This document shows positions 3,001-10,846 of a stretch of DNA of 64,000 nt, one piece after another. Source of the stretch: Escherichia coli (GTDB lineage: Bacteria > Pseudomonadota > Gammaproteobacteria > Enterobacterales > Enterobacteriaceae); the NCBI RefSeq assembly GCF_003334385.1, contig NZ_QOWN01000013.1; one strand, written 5' to 3'. The notes beneath the pieces were generated by a model. That model saw only the letters and a list, made by a program, of their open reading frames with translations, was not told the origin of the DNA and did not search any database. Both the position numbers and the translations under genes were made by a program. Position 1 is the first letter of the stretch; each line of letters starts with the position of its first letter.

Positions 3001-3489
3001 CCAGGAAGAACGAACAAATCCACCGCGTCCACGCGCCTGCTTAAAGCTTTTCGCTTTATCGGCGTCTTCAATGATAGAAGCCCATGCCTCAACCGGATCG
3101 CTATGCAGCGCCTTCGCTTCACGCCACATTTTCATCAGGCGTTTGCGCATCATCGGGTATTTCAGGCGGTTGGCACTGTAAAGATACCAGGAGTAGCTGG
3201 CACCGCGCGGGCAGCCGCGAGGTTCATGGTTTGGCAGATCCGGACGGGTACGCGGATAGTCAGTCTGCTGGGTTTCCCAGGTGACCAGACCGTTTTTGAC
3301 GTAGATTTTCCAGCTGCAGGAGCCGGTGCAGTTTACCCCGTGGGTAGAGCGGACGATTTTGTCATGCTGCCAACGCTGGCGATATCCATCCTCCCAGTCA
3401 CGGTTGGTATTGAGAAGCTGGCCATGCCCATCGGCAAAGGTTTCACCCTTCTGTTTGAAGTAGCGAAACCGGTCCAGGAATTTACTCAT
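1..3489 (-). CDS. narG: Respiratory nitrate reductase 1 alpha subunit NarG, 5' portion (about residues 1-1163; C-terminus lies beyond window start)
   Basis: Reverse complement of 3481-3489 reads ATG AGT AAA (MSK) with GGAG RBS upstream; reverse complement of window start reads VPAGMTMMY, matching the NarG C-terminal region. Plus-strand ORFs 193-1506 and 1645-2847 are antisense artefacts. Confidence 0.93.
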   Translation of the reverse strand, partial: MSKFLDRFRYFKQKGETFADGHGQLLNTNRDWEDGYRQRWQHDKIVRSTHGVNCTGSCSWKIYVKNGLVTWETQQTDYPRTRPDLPNHEPRGCPRGASYSWYLYSANRLKYPMMRKRLMKMWREAKALHSDPVEAWASIIEDADKAKSFKQARGRGGFVRSSWQEVNELIAASNVYTIKNYGPDRVAGFSPIPAMSMVSYASGARYLSLIGGTCLSFYDWYCDLPPASPQTWGEQTDVPESADWYNSSYIIAWGANVPQTRTPDAHFFTEVRYKGTKTVAVTPDYAEIAKLCDLWLAPKQGTDAAMALAMGHVMLREFHLDNPSQYFTDYVRRYTDMPMLVMLEERDGYYAAGRMLRAADLVDALGQENNPEWKTVAFNTNGEMVAPNGSIGFRWGEKGKWNLEQRDGKTGEETELQLSLLGSQDEIAEVGFPYFGGDGTEHFNKVELENVLLHKLPVKRLQLADGSTALVTTVYDLTLANYGLERGLNDVNCATSYDDVKAYTPAWAEQITGVSRSQIIRIAREFADNADKTHGRSMIIVGAGLNHWYHLDMNYRGLINMLIFCGCVGQSGGGWAHYVGQEKLRPQTGWQPLAFALDWQRPARHMNSTSYFYNHSSQWRYETVTAEELLSPMADKSRYTGHLIDFNVRAERMGWLPSAPQLGTNPLTIAGEAEKAGMNPVDYTVKSLKEGSIRFAAEQPENGKNHPRNLFIWRSNLLGSSGKGHEFMLKYLLGTEHGIQGKDLGQQGGVKPEEVDWQDNGLEGKLDLVVTLDFRLSSTCLYSDIILPTATWYEKDDMNTSDMHPFIHPLSAAVDPAWEAKSDWEIYKAIAKKFSEVCVGHLGKETDIVTLPIQHDSAAELAQPLDVKDWKKGECDLIPGKTAPHIMVVERDYPATYERFTSIGPLMEKIGNGGKGIAWNTQSEMDLLRKLNYTKAEGPAKGQPMLNTAIDAAEMILTLAPETNGQVAVKAWAALSEFTGRDHTHLALNKEDEKIRFRDIQAQPRKIISSPTWSGLEDEHVSYNAGYTNVHELIPWRTLSGRQQLYQDHQWMRDFGESLLVYRPPIDTRSVKEVIGQKSNGNQEKALNFLTPHQKWGIHSTYSDNLLMLTLGRGGPVVWLSEADAKDLGIADNDWIEVFNSNGALTARAVVSQRVPAGMTMMY

Positions 3490-3580
3490 CGGTTTTCTCC
3501 TGTGGGAGCCTGTCGGCCCTCTGATAAATCGACATTGCTAATGTTTAAGGGCAAGGTAACGCTCTGAAACAGCGTGGGAA

Positions 3581-3594
3581 TTGATAACGATCAA
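3581..3594. promoter_or_regulatory. FNR box TTGAT-N4-ATCAA in narG promoter
   Basis: Perfect palindrome ttgataacgatcaa about 98 bp upstream of narG ATG; narG is known to be FNR-activated from a site near -41.5. Confidence 0.7.
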
Positions 3595-3629
3595 GAGTGA
3601 TGGGGATGAAAAATAAAGTAAATTCCTAA

Positions 3630-3760
3630 GATACCCCTTTAGGATAATTAACAGCCACCACATAACAGACTGTAAATTAAGACGTTTTATACCTGTAGTT
3701 ATTTAAACTATTAAGATTTTTATGCAGATGGGTATTAAGGAGTATTCCCCATGGGTAACA
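3630..3760. promoter_or_regulatory. Candidate NarL heptamer cluster upstream of narG
   Basis: TACCCCT at 3633-3639 on plus strand, with TACTCCT and TACCCAT on minus strand near 3739-3756; all fit NarL heptamer consensus TACYYMT. Positions approximate. Confidence 0.45.
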
Positions 3761-4004: not shown

Positions 4005-5396
4005 TTATTTTTTAGAATGCCGACCATATACCGCCCAGGTAATCACTACGCAGGCGATATAGAAAATCAAAAATACCTTCATTGCGCCGACTGGCGAACC
4101 CGTTAATGCCAGCGAGCTACCAAACGCTTTCGGGATAAAGAAGCCACCAATCGCGCCAATCGCAGAGATGAAACCCAGCGCCGCCGCCGTGTCGGTTGCC
4201 GCTTCACGCATCGCACGTTCGTCAGAACCCCCTTCTGCTTTCACGCGATCCATTGTCAGTTTACGGAAGATCACTGAAATCATCTGGAAAGTGGAACCAC
4301 TACCCAGCCCAGCTGTCAGGAACAGCGCCAGGAAGACCGCGAAGAACGCCATGAAGCTTCCGCCCTGCCCGTCAGTCGGTAAGGTCAGGAACAGCAGGCC
4401 GCTGAAAATCGCCATCAGAATAAAGTTCACCAGCGTGACACGAGTTCCGCCCAGACGGTCAGATAATGCACCACCTGCAGAACGCGCCAGCGCACCAATA
4501 AACGGCCCGAAGAAAGCGTATTGCAGAATCTGAACATCCGGGAACTGCGTTTTTGACAGCATTGCAAAGCCCGCGGAGAAGCCGATGAAGGAGCCGAAGG
4601 TTGCCAGATACAGCAGGCTCATAATCCACAGATGACCCCGTTTGAGTACCGGCAACTGCTCCTTGATGGAGGCTTTCGAGGTAGCAAGATCGTTCATGCC
4701 AAACCACGCCGCAATGGTGAAGATGGCAAGGAACGGCACCCATATCCAGGACGCATTCGCCAGATACAGCTCAGTCCCATCCGGCTGTTTGACGCCCTGG
4801 CTACCAAATACTGCGAAAATCGACAGTGATACCACCAGCGGAGCAACCAACTGCATGACGCTGACGCCCATGTTTCCCAGACCACCATTCAGACCCAGCG
4901 CGCCACCCTGCTTCTGTTTCGGAAAGAAGAAGCTGATGTTTGCCATACTGGATGCGAAGTTCGCGCCAGCAAAGCCGCATAGCAGAGAGATGATGATGAA
5001 GACGCTATAAGGCGTGGAGGTATCCTGCACGGCAAAACCCAGCCAGACGCAAGGAATAATCAGAATACCGGTGCTGAACGCCGTCCAGCGACGACCACCG
5101 AAGATAGGAACCATAAAGGAGTATGGAACACGTAATAACGCGCCAGAAACCGAAGGCAGCGCAGTCAACATAAATAGCTGATCGGTCGTAAAATTAAAGC
5201 CGACTTTCGGTAGGTTCACCGCAACAGCGCTGAACAACATCCATACGCAAAACGCCAGCAGCAGACAGGGAACGGAAATCCACAGGTTGCGGCTGGCAAT
5301 ACGTTGACCGCGTTGTTGCCAGAACGCAGGATCTTCCGGTCGCCAATCTGTAATGACAGCTCCAGTAGCCCTTTCGGGGGCGGATGAGTGACTCAT
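4005..5396 (-). CDS. narK: Nitrate/nitrite antiporter NarK (MFS), 463 aa
   Basis: ORF-track protein matches NarK; start set at ATG 5396 (MSHSSAPE), two codons inside the GTG-started track ORF. Confidence 0.93.
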   Translation of the reverse strand: MSHSSAPERATGAVITDWRPEDPAFWQQRGQRIASRNLWISVPCLLLAFCVWMLFSAVAVNLPKVGFNFTTDQLFMLTALPSVSGALLRVPYSFMVPIFGGRRWTAFSTGILIIPCVWLGFAVQDTSTPYSVFIIISLLCGFAGANFASSMANISFFFPKQKQGGALGLNGGLGNMGVSVMQLVAPLVVSLSIFAVFGSQGVKQPDGTELYLANASWIWVPFLAIFTIAAWFGMNDLATSKASIKEQLPVLKRGHLWIMSLLYLATFGSFIGFSAGFAMLSKTQFPDVQILQYAFFGPFIGALARSAGGALSDRLGGTRVTLVNFILMAIFSGLLFLTLPTDGQGGSFMAFFAVFLALFLTAGLGSGSTFQMISVIFRKLTMDRVKAEGGSDERAMREAATDTAAALGFISAIGAIGGFFIPKAFGSSLALTGSPVGAMKVFLIFYIACVVITWAVYGRHSKK

Positions 5397-5503
5397 AGAC
5401 ACCTCTGATACTCGTTTCGATGTCTGCCACCTTAGTGTCTGTAGCTAAAGGCAATTTGATGTAAATCAAACGATAAGATAACTTTATCTATCATTGATAT
5501 TTA

Positions 5504-5517
5504 TCATTACCCATAGT
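5504..5517. promoter_or_regulatory. FNR-like site TTGAT-N4-ATCAT upstream of narK
   Basis: ttgatatttatcat, one mismatch to FNR consensus, about 114 bp upstream of narK start in the narK/narX divergent region. Confidence 0.5.
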
Positions 5518-5734
5518 GAGTACAGTGACTTCATAAAAATTATGAGATTTTTCACGGTGCTGTAAAATCCCTACCCTTACCGATGTAAAGCGACTAACCA
5601 CACGGCAAATAAGGAGTAACTCTTTCCGGGTATGGGTATACTTCAGCCAATAGCCGAGAATACTGCCATTCCAGAATGTATCGTCACATTCATTAAGGTT
5701 ATTGCTCATTTAAAGCCTGAAGGAAGAGGTTTAC

Positions 5735-7531
5735 ATGCTTAAACGTTGTCTCTCTCCGCTCACCCTGGTTAATCAGGTTGCGCTTATTGTGTTGCTTTCT
5801 ACTGCTATTGGACTGGCAGGGATGGCGGTTTCTGGCTGGCTGGTGCAAGGCGTTCAGGGCAGCGCCCATGCGATCAACAAAGCGGGATCGCTGCGCATGC
5901 AAAGTTACCGTCTGTTGGCGGCAGTGCCATTAAGCGAGAAAGACAAGCCCTTAATTAAAGAGATGGAACAAACGGCATTTAGCGCCGAGTTGACTCGAGC
6001 AGCAGAACGAGACGGACAACTGGCGCAATTACAGGGTTTACAAGATTACTGGCGTAATGAACTGATCCCTGCGCTGATGCGTGCACAAAACCGAGAAACG
6101 GTGTCAGCGGATGTCAGCCAGTTTGTTGCCGGGCTTGATCAACTGGTATCTGGTTTTGACCGCACCACGGAAATGCGCATCGAGACAGTGGTACTGGTCC
6201 ATCGGGTAATGGCGGTATTTATGGCACTTTTACTGGTGTTCACTATTATCTGGTTGCGGGCGCGACTGCTACAACCGTGGCGGCAACTGCTGGCAATGGC
6301 GAGTGCCGTCAGTCATCGCGATTTTACCCAACGCGCAAACATCAGCGGGCGCAACGAAATGGCGATGCTTGGAACTGCGTTGAACAATATGTCTGCAGAA
6401 CTGGCCGAAAGTTATGCCGTACTTGAGCAGCGGGTTCAGGAGAAAACCGCCGGGCTGGAGCATAAAAATCAGATCCTCTCTTTTTTATGGCAGGCTAACC
6501 GCCGTTTGCATTCCCGCGCCCCGCTGTGTGAACGCCTGTCACCTGTACTCAACGGCTTACAGAATTTAACCCTGCTACGTGATATCGAATTGCGGGTGTA
6601 TGACACTGATGATGAAGAGAATCATCAGGAGTTTACCTGCCAGCCAGATATGACTTGTGATGATAAAGGCTGCCAGCTCTGCCCGCGCGGCGTATTACCC
6701 GTTGGTGATCGCGGCACGACCCTGAAGTGGCGGCTGGCTGACTCTCATACGCAGTACGGTATTTTGCTGGCGACCCTGCCGCAGGGGCGTCATCTTAGCC
6801 ATGATCAACAACAACTGGTGGATACCCTGGTTGAACAACTCACCGCCACGCTGGCGCTGGATCGCCATCAGGAACGTCAGCAACAGTTGATCGTGATGGA
6901 AGAGCGTGCCACCATTGCGCGCGAACTGCATGATTCTATTGCCCAATCTCTCTCTTGCATGAAGATGCAGGTGAGTTGTTTACAGATGCAGGGCGATGCG
7001 CTGCCAGAAAGCAGCCGCGAACTGTTAAGTCAGATCCGTAACGAACTGAATGCATCCTGGGCGCAGTTGCGTGAATTGCTCACCACATTCCGCTTGCAGC
7101 TCACCGAGCCTGGATTACGTCCGGCGCTGGAGGCGAGTTGCGAAGAGTACAGCGCCAAATTTGGCTTCCCGGTGAAGCTGGATTATCAATTGCCGCCTCG
7201 CCTGGTGCCTTCGCATCAGGCAATCCACTTGTTGCAAATTGCCCGTGAGGCATTAAGTAACGCCCTCAAACATTCGCAAGCGAGTGAAGTCGTGGTGACG
7301 GTGGCGCAAAACGATAATCAGGTCAAACTGACCGTCCAGGATAACGGCTGCGGCGTGCCTGAAAATGCCATCCGCAGCAATCACTACGGCATGATAATAA
7401 TGCGCGATCGTGCGCAAAGTTTACGAGGCGATTGCCGCGTCCGCCGTCGTGAATCAGGTGGCACCGAAGTGGTGGTCACCTTTATTCCCGAAAAAACTTT
7501 CACAGACGTCCAAGGAGATACCCATGAGTAA
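5735..7531 (+). CDS. narX: Nitrate/nitrite sensor histidine kinase NarX, 598 aa
   Basis: ATG at 5735 preceded by aggaagagg RBS; translation contains the H-box ELHDSIAQ and a HATPase C-terminal domain. Confidence 0.95.
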
Positions 7532-8174
7532 TCAGGAACCGGCTACTATCCTGCTGATTGACGATCACCCGATGCTGCGAACTGGCGTAAAACAGCTTAT
7601 CAGTATGGCACCAGATATCACCGTGGTTGGCGAAGCGAGTAATGGCGAACAGGGTATTGAACTGGCGGAGTCTCTTGATCCCGATCTGATCCTGTTAGAT
7701 CTCAATATGCCCGGCATGAACGGTCTGGAAACGCTGGATAAACTGCGCGAAAAGTCCCTCTCAGGGCGCATTGTGGTATTCAGCGTCTCTAACCATGAAG
7801 AAGATGTGGTCACCGCACTGAAACGCGGCGCGGATGGCTATCTGTTAAAAGATATGGAACCGGAAGATCTGCTGAAAGCATTGCATCAGGCAGCTGCTGG
7901 CGAAATGGTATTAAGCGAAGCATTAACGCCTGTTCTGGCCGCCAGCTTGCGCGCTAACCGTGCCACTACTGAGCGCGATGTTAACCAGTTAACCCCACGC
8001 GAGCGCGATATTCTCAAGCTGATTGCCCAGGGTTTGCCGAACAAGATGATTGCCCGCCGCCTGGATATCACCGAAAGCACAGTAAAAGTGCACGTCAAGC
8101 ACATGCTGAAGAAAATGAAGCTCAAGTCTCGCGTGGAAGCAGCGGTATGGGTGCATCAGGAGCGCATTTTCTGA
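7524..8174 (+). CDS. narL: Nitrate/nitrite response regulator NarL, 216 aa
   Basis: ATG at 7524 ([19 protein letters not shown]), overlapping the narX stop by 8 nt; receiver plus LuxR-type HTH. Confidence 0.95.
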
Positions 8175-9569
8175 TTACGGTTCCCAGCGCAGTTCGTCGT
8201 TTGACAATGCATCGAACGGTTCGACAAGCGTTAGCGTGATCTCATTGGAGGAGACACGCTGCCCCTGGTTATCTTCCACCACCACAGACAATCGCCAGTG
8301 ATTGCTTGCCCCTTCCCCGTTCTGCCAGTCAGGCATGATCAGCGTCCAGCCCTCCGCGCTGTTGGCTTGTGCGCCCGGCGTCAAACTTAATATCTGCGTA
8401 TCGCCCTGCCAAATCAGTTGCCGAATACCGTAACGACTGCGGATTTGTAATTTCAGCGGCACTGTTTCGCCAGGTTTTAGATCCCACGGCGGTGTCGCCA
8501 GAAACACCGTTAACGTTTTTCGCTGTCGGTACTCAAGAGTCGGTAGATTATTTCGCTGCGGATTGTCATAGCGACTACCACGTAACGACTGACTTTCGGC
8601 AACCTCGCCCGCAGAAAGTTGTTTTTTGAGCGGTACACCAAAGCGGTAATTAAGATTCAGCCCGAGGTTATTTTGATTTTCGCCACTTTCACCCTGTTTA
8701 TGCTGGGCCGTCACAGTGACTAATGGCACAGGGGTGTAATTTAATCCCAGACTCAACGCGACGGGATTGTGATAACCCGTACCAGAGTTAAACAAATCAA
8801 CACGATCACCAAAATACTGTTCTAGGCTGACACTGGTATTGAGGTGTTGATAGAACGGCATGCGCATCCGAGCTGTCAGGTCGTACCCGCGCGCCATCCG
8901 TTGTTCCTGCGTGGCTGTCTGTTCATGCCATGCAGCAAACGGCTGATAAAAGTTTGCCGATAATCGCAAATATTCGCCCCACGCTTCGGCACCAAAGCCC
9001 GCTCGCTGAAGATTTTCGTCCAGCAAGTTGTCATAAAAAGTGTTATAACCCACCAGCCAGTTGCCGCGCGCCCAGCGTTGCCCAACGCCCACATTGCTCA
9101 CCAACCCATTATCCTGCTGAGTAAGACCAAGCTGGCTCCAGGTGAGATAACGATCATTATCTTGTAACGGCACAAACCAGCTTCCACGACTGCCGGTGAA
9201 ATGTCCTTCGTTATCCACTTTGACGTCAACACTGGCATTTCCCCACGGTGATAGCCAGGACTCTACGTGCTGATTAACCTGTTGACTAAGCGCGTCGCGG
9301 ACTTTTCCCAATGCGAAAGCTTTTGCCTGCTCGCCAGTATCCAGCCCGTTATCATTCATACTGGTTTCGCCGAAATCTTTCACAATTTCAGCAAAGTGTT
9401 TTTCCCCATCATGATTTTCGGGAGCCATGCCTAAATCCGGCAGACCATCATTGTTATTATCAAAGGGATTTGCCGCTTTTTGCTCGAAGGTAGATTGTGC
9501 GTTAGCTGTACCGCCTGCTACAAGCAAGAGTAAATAAAACGGGATAATGCGAGGAACGAAACGGCTCAA
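8175..9569 (-). CDS. ychO: Putative invasin/intimin-like outer membrane protein YchO
   Basis: 464-codon ORF with N-terminal signal peptide (LLLLVAGGTANAQS); apparent TTG start at 9569; stop codon immediately abuts the narL stop. Confidence 0.8.
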   Translation of the reverse strand: MSRFVPRIIPFYLLLLVAGGTANAQSTFEQKAANPFDNNNDGLPDLGMAPENHDGEKHFAEIVKDFGETSMNDNGLDTGEQAKAFALGKVRDALSQQVNQHVESWLSPWGNASVDVKVDNEGHFTGSRGSWFVPLQDNDRYLTWSQLGLTQQDNGLVSNVGVGQRWARGNWLVGYNTFYDNLLDENLQRAGFGAEAWGEYLRLSANFYQPFAAWHEQTATQEQRMARGYDLTARMRMPFYQHLNTSVSLEQYFGDRVDLFNSGTGYHNPVALSLGLNYTPVPLVTVTAQHKQGESGENQNNLGLNLNYRFGVPLKKQLSAGEVAESQSLRGSRYDNPQRNNLPTLEYRQRKTLTVFLATPPWDLKPGETVPLKLQIRSRYGIRQLIWQGDTQILSLTPGAQANSAEGWTLIMPDWQNGEGASNHWRLSVVVEDNQGQRVSSNEITLTLVEPFDALSNDELRWEP

Positions 9570-9591
9570 AACGTCGGTAACTTCCGGTAAT

Positions 9592-9631
<40 letters not shown>

Positions 9632-9632
9632 A

Positions 9633-9736
<104 letters not shown>

Positions 9737-9753
9737 GAATACAGGAGTAAATA

Positions 9754-10107
9754 ATGCAAAAAATCGTGATCGTTGCCAATGGCGCACCTTACGGGAGCGA
9801 ATCCTTGTTTAACAGCTTGCGGCTGGCCATTGCGTTACGAGAGCAGGAGAGCAATCTGGATCTGCGTCTGTTCCTCATGTCTGATGCGGTCACAGCCGGG
9901 TTGCGCGGGCAAAAACCAGGGGAAGGCTACAACATTCAGCAAATGCTGGAGATCCTTACCGCTCAGAATGTACCGGTGAAATTGTGCAAAACCTGTACCG
10001 ACGGGCGCGGGATTAGTACACTTCCTCTGATTGATGGGGTGGAAATCGGTACTCTTGTGGAACTGGCGCAATGGACGCTGTCAGCCGATAAAGTGCTCAC
10101 ATTTTAA
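9754..10107 (+). CDS. ychN: DsrE/DsrF-like protein YchN, 117 aa
   Basis: ATG at 9754 with AGGAG RBS; protein matches YchN. Confidence 0.9.
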   Translation: MQKIVIVANGAPYGSESLFNSLRLAIALREQESNLDLRLFLMSDAVTAGLRGQKPGEGYNIQQMLEILTAQNVPVKLCKTCTDGRGISTLPLIDGVEIGTLVELAQWTLSADKVLTF

Positions 10108-10114
10108 TGTTTGA

Positions 10115-10132
10115 GGGGGCGTCTGACGCCCC
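10115..10132. terminator. GC-rich hairpin between convergent ychN and chaC
   Basis: ggggcg-tctga-cgcccc stem-loop; no clear U-tract on either side. Confidence 0.35.
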
Positions 10133-10150
10133 ACTATGCGGGAAGTTTAC

Positions 10151-10846
10151 TCAGGCGAATCCCGGACGTAACACACCATCCGGAAAATTCTCCGCCAGCA
10201 GTTTTTTTACCGATACCAGCAAATCATTCAGCCCATCGTCCTGCATTCCTAGTTTGATAAGCTCCTGTTCCAGTGAAAACAGGTATTGTGCGTTGGTTCC
10301 CAGCGGACCGCTCGCCGCCGCAATCAACGGCGCGATGACCTGAGCGCGAGTATCAGATTCATATTCTGGATGTCGCGGGTCCATAATAAACACAATGGCG
10401 TTTACTGTGCGTCCATCATCAAGATCAAGCTGACACCAGGTTGGCAGATAACAGCCGGTAATCATCTCTCGCTTCCACAACAGGGTTAGTTCCTGCTCCA
10501 GCGTCTCTTCTGGCAGTCGATAGGCGACGCCTGTGGTGCGTCCGCCCTCTTTCAGTGCAAGCATCCGTCCCGGCTGGTGCGCAGTCCCGCGCCCGGCGGT
10601 CAGGCGCAGGCAAAATGCGCGATGCCATCCAACCAGTGTACCGGTGCACGATTCGGTAAACTCCAGTGCCGGATTCCACATCAACGATCCATAGCCGAAG
10701 ATCCACACCGGTCCCTCATCAGGTCGACAAGCCAGCGTCGCCGCCAGCGAAGCCGCCCGTTGTTCTGCTGACCATAAGAGTGATTCTTCAATGGCACCAA
10801 ATGCCGTTTTACAATCGGCATTCATCAAGAAATCACGCGTTATCAC
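10151..10846 (-). CDS. chaC: Glutathione-specific gamma-glutamylcyclotransferase ChaC, 231 aa
   Basis: Protein matches ChaC from MITRDFLMNADC; start taken at GTG 10846, 12 codons inside the track ORF. Confidence 0.85.
   Translation of the reverse strand: MITRDFLMNADCKTAFGAIEESLLWSAEQRAASLAATLACRPDEGPVWIFGYGSLMWNPALEFTESCTGTLVGWHRAFCLRLTAGRGTAHQPGRMLALKEGGRTTGVAYRLPEETLEQELTLLWKREMITGCYLPTWCQLDLDDGRTVNAIVFIMDPRHPEYESDTRAQVIAPLIAAASGPLGTNAQYLFSLEQELIKLGMQDDGLNDLLVSVKKLLAENFPDGVLRPGFA

Follow-up and report, generated by a model that had tools for sequence, protein, structure and literature searches.

A spacer-free tail-to-tail junction of narL and ychO in Escherichia coli and the Rho-dependent loss of probable narL read-through

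In the 64,000-nucleotide stretch of Escherichia coli DNA analysed here (the window), the nitrate/nitrite response regulator gene narL and the invasin-like gene ychO meet tail to tail with no nucleotide between their stop codons. We consider it probable that this is an incidental, compacted junction of two unrelated genes, at which Rho ends the read-through of narXL and the complementary RNA tails are tolerated. Neither gene would then depend on an intergenic intrinsic terminator. Ribosomes would be released at the narL stop codon and the narXL transcript would go on as untranslated RNA antisense to ychO; Rho would load on a C-rich, G-poor stretch about 65–185 nt past the narL stop, and narXL transcription would be terminated about 200–300 nt beyond it. 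The weakly expressed ychO transcript presumably enters narL in the antisense orientation and would be ended likewise, by Rho or by decay. Both mRNAs would thus carry complementary 3′ tails of a few hundred nucleotides at most, most likely without a regulatory role.

The coding sequence of narL (7524–8174, plus strand; 216 residues) ends with a TGA at 8172–8174, and that of ychO (8175–9569, minus strand; 464 residues) with a TAA that is the reverse complement of the TTA at 8175–8177. The window reads ATT TTC TGA directly followed by TTA CGG TTC, and the two opposite-strand stops form the hexamer TGATTA (8172–8177) with a stop-to-stop gap of 0 nt. The first-pass annotation had described the two stops as abutting, and this is confirmed by direct reading of the window, by the list of open reading frames and by the RefSeq annotation of both K-12 MG1655 and strain ETEC1703, the latter being identical to the window over 7400–9700. 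In K-12 MG1655, ychO occupies 1273784–1275178 and narL 1275179–1275829, again with a 0-nt gap, and window positions 8100–8520 align with this genome at 100% identity. An 80-mer spanning the junction is present at an identity of at least 95% in 5,422 of 5,426 complete E. coli genomes.

The order of genes around the junction is narK (minus), narX (plus, 5735–7531), narL (plus), ychO (minus), ychN (plus) and chaC (minus). The sensor kinase gene narX is the first gene of the narXL operon and its end overlaps the start of narL by 8 nt, in the list of open reading frames as in RefSeq. An annotation artefact was rejected because both genes pass curated equivalog models: NarL scores 423 bits against NCBIfam NF007935 (cutoff 250) and YchO, an inverse-autotransporter invasin-like protein, scores 802 bits against NF007556, the YchO/YchP invasin model (cutoff 508); RefSeq agrees with both assignments. 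The two open reading frames are thus genuine protein-coding genes, with orthologues in 62–80 species, and they lie tail to tail on opposite strands with their coding sequences abutting, not overlapping.

Zero-spacer arrangements of this kind are a minority class, yet an ordinary one and not rare. The window contains 14 convergent pairs, with gaps of 0, 1, 43, 45, 51, 54, 56, 78, 99, 102, 148, 206 nt and more, and in two of them the gap is at most 1 nt. The second near-zero convergent junction is that of ycgR, which ends at 39559 on the plus strand, and emtA, which ends at 39561 on the minus strand, with a 1-nt gap. Overlapping convergent pairs in E. coli have been counted as 58 (Lillo and Krakauer 2007, PMC2174442) and as 75 (Huvet and Stumpf 2014, PMC4161906), and the modal class is the shared-stop tetramer (CTAA, TTAA, CTAG or TTAG). 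The short convergent stop–stop overlaps of prokaryotes resemble the present junction in that two real opposite-strand genes meet with no space for a terminator, and narL/ychO itself forms a 4-nt shared-stop overlap in 23 of 62 other species. In E. coli, by contrast, the narL and ychO stops abut (TGA, then TTA) and share no bases, which makes the pair strictly a non-overlap. It fits the class of convergent pairs that overlap in other species though not in E. coli, of which 55 have been reported (PMC4161906).

The terminator-less junction of narL and ychO is ancient. Of the narL loci taken from 80 species-representative genomes, 62 have a convergent ychO homologue beside narL, and in 57 of these 62 species the distance between the ends of the coding sequences is at most 11 nt, leaving no space for a terminator. 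The distance is −48 to −54 nt in 3 species, −4 nt in 23 (CTAA in 7, TTAA in 10, CTAG in 5 and TTAG in 1), 0 nt in 12 (3 with TGATTA and the rest with other stop–stop hexamers), 1–11 nt in 19 and 21–46 nt in 5. The arrangement spans Enterobacteriaceae, Serratia, Rouxiella and Mangrovibacter. A gap of at most 11 nt is found in 0 of 12 syntenic loci for the neighbouring ychN/chaC pair, a weak control in that this pair is syntenic in only 12. What is new here is the depth to which the terminator-less junction is conserved, together with its natural variants; this is a modest addition, and the rest is already in the literature.

On the narL strand, published data place a Rho-sensitive drop in coverage shortly past the junction. 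A Rho termination region has been reported at K-12 1274961 on the minus strand and labelled 'antisense ychO' (Adams et al. 2021, PMC7815308, supplementary file 2). Transferred through the 100% identical alignment, this position, the published site at which the Rho score, a measure of coverage loss sensitive to bicyclomycin, is highest (with a resolution of a few hundred nucleotides), falls at 8392 on the plus strand of the window, 218 nt past the narL stop. Coverage over the region goes from 101 to 6 reads without bicyclomycin and from 649 to 408 reads with it, with a Rho score of 10.58 and p = 5e-14 (PMC7815308); we reproduced the score as (408/649)/(6/101). In these data, which come from one split culture and 800-nt windows and therefore give an approximate position, bicyclomycin raises transcription downstream of the narXL 3′ end. 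We infer that the Rho-sensitive RNA is read-through from narXL, the alternative in principle being an independent antisense transcript. With its extent taken from the Rho peak, the untranslated 3′ extension of the narXL mRNA would cover 8175–8392 (plus strand), antisense to approximately the last 72 codons of ychO.

The RNA in front of the termination zone is untranslated, weakly structured, C-rich and G-poor over more than 50–80 nt. A C-rich, G-poor tract at 8240–8360 (plus strand; 41% C, 18–19% G), which resembles a rut site and is a putative Rho loading region, sits immediately upstream of the published Rho position at 8392. The ratio of C to G peaks at 2.46 at 8254–8331 (plus strand), the 99.2nd percentile among all 78-nt windows of the 64 kb. 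Around the 1,078 Rho regions reported in total there is an enrichment of C over G; 51.5% of the regions are antisense to an annotated gene, and just 4.5% are 50 nt or less from the end of a gene, since more than 50 nt of untranslated RNA are required by Rho (PMC7815308). The narXL 3′ end is a typical member of this class of Rho-terminated untranslated or antisense read-through: the bicyclomycin-sensitive drop occurs more than 50 nt past the stop and antisense to the neighbouring gene, C-rich and G-poor RNA precedes it, antisense regions are the largest Rho class, and nothing material sets it apart. Rho-dependent termination of untranslated or antisense read-through is reportedly also treated by Peters et al. 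in 2012.

A second Rho region in the same data, at K-12 1272857 on the minus strand ('antisense chaC', Rho score 12.3; PMC7815308), corresponds to about 10496 on the plus strand of the window, inside chaC (10151–10846). Read-through from ychN apparently extends about 390 nt into the convergent chaC, the same behaviour as at narL/ychO one gene pair along.

The first-pass annotation had also held that transcription from each gene must read into the other. For narL into ychO this holds, by the Rho region 218 nt past the stop and by the overlap of transcripts found with ExcludonFinder (below), and Rho bounds the extent to about 200–300 nt. For the opposite direction, ychO into narL, the tables of PMC7815308 list no 3′ end and no Rho region on the ychO strand inside narL. 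The missing entry for a ychO-strand 3′ end is probably due to the poor expression of ychO in LB, and the ychO strand presumably behaves like the narL strand.

Rho-dependent termination is relaxed in its sequence requirements, and a spacer between the genes is therefore dispensable. Because no spacer is needed, deletion bias and stop-codon turnover would keep the gap near zero across Enterobacterales. The zero-spacer arrangement is thus likely to be neutral, and both the drift of the gap between classes and the negative outcome of tests for embedded function fit neutral compaction. Diversity at four-fold sites stays level towards the 3′ ends of the two genes, giving no sign of hidden constraint: it is 0.62 in narL codons 191–210 (gene mean 0.53) and 0.47–0.56 in ychO codons 391–460 (against 0.53). 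Selection for the rut-like tract was rejected by synonymous resampling of ychO codons 406–439, in which the antisense C/G ratio was 2.05 observed against 1.81 ± 0.29 (p = 0.20); the sequence of the YchO protein therefore explains the C-rich tract. Species with ychO (median 1.94) and species without it (1.91) are also alike in the maximal C/G ratio downstream of narL. As counterpoints, the tightness of the junction across genera (57 of 62 species, against 0 of 12 for ychN/chaC) could also reflect selection, and excludon pairs have been found to show higher synteny than other pairs (PMC12288877).

The pair ychO–narL is one of 165 convergent excludons listed for E. coli MG1655 (ExcludonFinder; Sanmartin et al. 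2025, PMC12288877, Table 1), a list restricted to transcript overlaps present in 50% or more of 58 MG1655 RNA-seq samples. Short intergenic distances are typical of these excludons, with a mean spacer of 95 nt as against 0 for ychO–narL. At this junction the transcripts of opposite-strand neighbours overlap, with independent support for the narL strand and ExcludonFinder as the sole source for the ychO strand. The pairs emtA–ycgR, ychH–dauA and ymgM–cvrA of the same window are in the list as well.

In a functional convergent excludon, narXL and ychO would each work against the expression of the other, by transcriptional interference, by RNase III cutting the RNA duplex or by both, and nitrate sensing would be coupled to the expression of a host-induced adhesin. 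We regard this, and with it the antisense interference that the first-pass annotation suggested, as speculative and improbable, with several observations in its favour: the pair belongs to the published core excludome (PMC12288877), narL-strand RNA covers approximately the last 200 nt of ychO (PMC7815308), the tight junction is retained in 57 of 62 species, and avian pathogenic E. coli induces ychO strongly in vivo (PMC4787180), so that conditions of high ychO transcription do exist. However, the criterion of ExcludonFinder is the overlap of coverage-defined transcript ends, which comes about almost automatically at a gap of 0 nt, and validation by p19 capture of double-stranded RNA was, according to its authors, not feasible for convergent excludons (PMC12288877). 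The overlap is free of synonymous-site constraint, and about 94% of the read-through is lost to Rho within the stretch over which coverage was compared. Moreover, ychO has been lost from E. albertii, and ychO is absent from beside narL in 18 of 80 species. Functional excludons are recognized by mutually exclusive expression and RNase III processing, whereas narL/ychO is known from transcript overlap only.

The ychO promoter, furthermore, has no NarL sites. No pairs of NarL heptamers occur in the ychO promoter region, and control of ychO by NarL was rejected, the sole heptamer match there (9743–9749) being the Shine–Dalgarno sequence of ychN. Over the whole window, NarL heptamers (TACYYMT) are over-represented (52 against 31.7 ± 5.5 expected) and cluster at 3483–3757 and 5508–5638, the promoter regions of narG and narK/narX, as expected for known NarL targets. 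It is more doubtful still that the junction, whose gap is at most 11 nt in 57 of the 62 Enterobacterales species, is a selected cis-antisense switch in which transcription of ychO into narL, on strong induction of ychO in the host, dampens the synthesis of NarL and narXL read-through in turn destabilises the ychO mRNA. Were that so, the control of nitrate respiration and the expression of the adhesin would be mutually exclusive.

That there is no intergenic terminator, a further point of the first-pass annotation, is true by construction at 0 nt, and no conserved terminator is embedded in either coding region. A consensus scan found no canonical terminator at or near the junction, and on neither strand of 8100–8250 is there a GC-rich hairpin with A and U tracts of the kind that makes a bidirectional intrinsic terminator. 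For the 300 nt that follow each stop, the fold is matched in stability by shuffled sequences (z = +0.63 on the narL side and −0.13 on the ychO side), and an Rfam search gave no match in the junction region. Over 5400–10200, terminator-like matches number 8, against 4.9 ± 3.0 in shuffles.

We consider it very unlikely that intrinsic terminators inside the opposite coding regions end the transcripts, at 8428, 8488 and 8523 on the plus strand for narXL and at 8106–8090 on the minus strand for ychO. Such sites do turn up in the consensus scan, and for 20% of the genes that overlap convergently in E. coli an intrinsic terminator has been predicted within the partner gene (PMC2174442). However, the matches do not exceed the shuffle level, and their stems are short and weak. 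The three plus-strand candidates were rejected as neither above the shuffle count nor conserved; of the 62 species, only 14 show terminator-like matches past narL, and the positions of these are not homologous. The minus-strand candidate is a weak hairpin within narL (8080–8106; 6 bp including one G–U) with a TTTT, and was rejected as a ychO terminator: just one of the 62 ychO-carrying species passes a lenient threshold, and the T-run is missing from another E. coli. In addition, the tables of PMC7815308 contain no discrete Term-seq 3′ end within K-12 1274700–1275899, and the coverage drop is Rho-dependent.

Least probable of all is that head-on collisions of RNA polymerases at the gene boundary set both 3′ ends: the orientation is convergent, the spacer is zero and the mechanism is reported for E. 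coli convergent pairs in a preprint (Wang et al. 2022, bioRxiv 10.1101/2022.10.23.513370), but that model requires a nascent-RNA stem-loop to position the collisions and this junction has no such hairpin, collisions should be rare between two weakly transcribed genes (the narL strand has about 100 reads in 800 nt), and the narL-strand drop is bicyclomycin-sensitive and therefore Rho-dependent. Programmed collisions and bidirectional intrinsic terminators share with narL/ychO a convergent pair whose two transcripts must both end in one short region; narL/ychO differs from the bidirectional intrinsic terminators in that its two genes share no GC-rich hairpin flanked by A and U tracts. Bidirectional intrinsic terminators between convergent genes are said to have been described by Ju et al. 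in 2019.

If, as we favour, Rho ends narXL read-through at an incidental junction, the biological importance of the arrangement is small: narL/ychO would be one of many spacer-free convergent pairs of E. coli and a textbook case of Rho tidying read-through. There is, however small that importance, a practical side to it, namely that any deletion of ychO or narL, or insertion of a cassette, necessarily rewrites the 3′ untranslated region of the other gene. The reverse homology arm of a published ΔychO mutant of avian pathogenic E. coli (PMC4787180, Table 2) corresponds to the final 50 nt of narL, TGA included, and matches window positions 8125–8174 at 49 of 50 nt. Since the arm ends at the narL TGA, the ΔychO cassette adjoins that stop, and the Rho-termination region of narXL is lost with the deletion. 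No discussion of narL is given in the paper, and complementation in trans restored the phenotypes tested (PMC4787180); the 'pleiotropic' phenotypes of ΔychO described there are worth checking for effects on narL. The pair also offers a convenient, deeply conserved natural test case for the regulatory consequence of listed excludons, with natural variants in the 4-nt overlap, the overlaps of about 50 nt, the hairpin-bearing spacer of Kluyvera and the loss of ychO in E. albertii.

The longer overlaps are found in Shimwellia (two loci) and Entomohabitans, where the ychO frame stays open across the junction and continues for 48–54 nt into the opposite-strand coding region of narL, presumably through loss of the stop codon. 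In Kluyvera spp. (three loci), narL and ychO are separated by a spacer of 43–46 nt with a palindromic hairpin, TTAATTGTCGTGACAGG...CCTGTCACGCACAATTAA, of −23 to −25 kcal/mol. A strong palindromic spacer hairpin is found only in the Kluyvera junctions and looks like an inserted element, similar to a bidirectional terminator or to a REP sequence. In E. albertii NBRC 107761, a clean 1,270-bp deletion corresponding to 8319–9588 of the window joins 8175–8318 to 9589 onward (4652–4790 of its narL locus). The deletion takes the start and about 90% of ychO, and about 144 nt of decayed ychO 3′ end abut the narL TGA. The strain is thus a natural ΔychO that keeps the proximal part of the narXL 3′ extension.

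Elsewhere in the window, three Ldr toxin genes lie in tandem at 13008–13115, 13543–13650 and 14078–14185 (within 12895–14185). Rfam at the gathering threshold returns only two rdlD antitoxin RNAs among them (12895–12960 and 13430–13495), and the antisense RNA of the third copy was not detected. Finally, positions 9985–10001 on the minus strand, inside ychN, match exactly the sigma-54 ChIP-seq motif TCGGTACAGGTTTTGCA (PMC4591121), which has been reported as an intragenic sigma-54 site about 405 nt upstream of ychO and pointing toward it. This site may be an input to ychO, or it may be an inert binding site.
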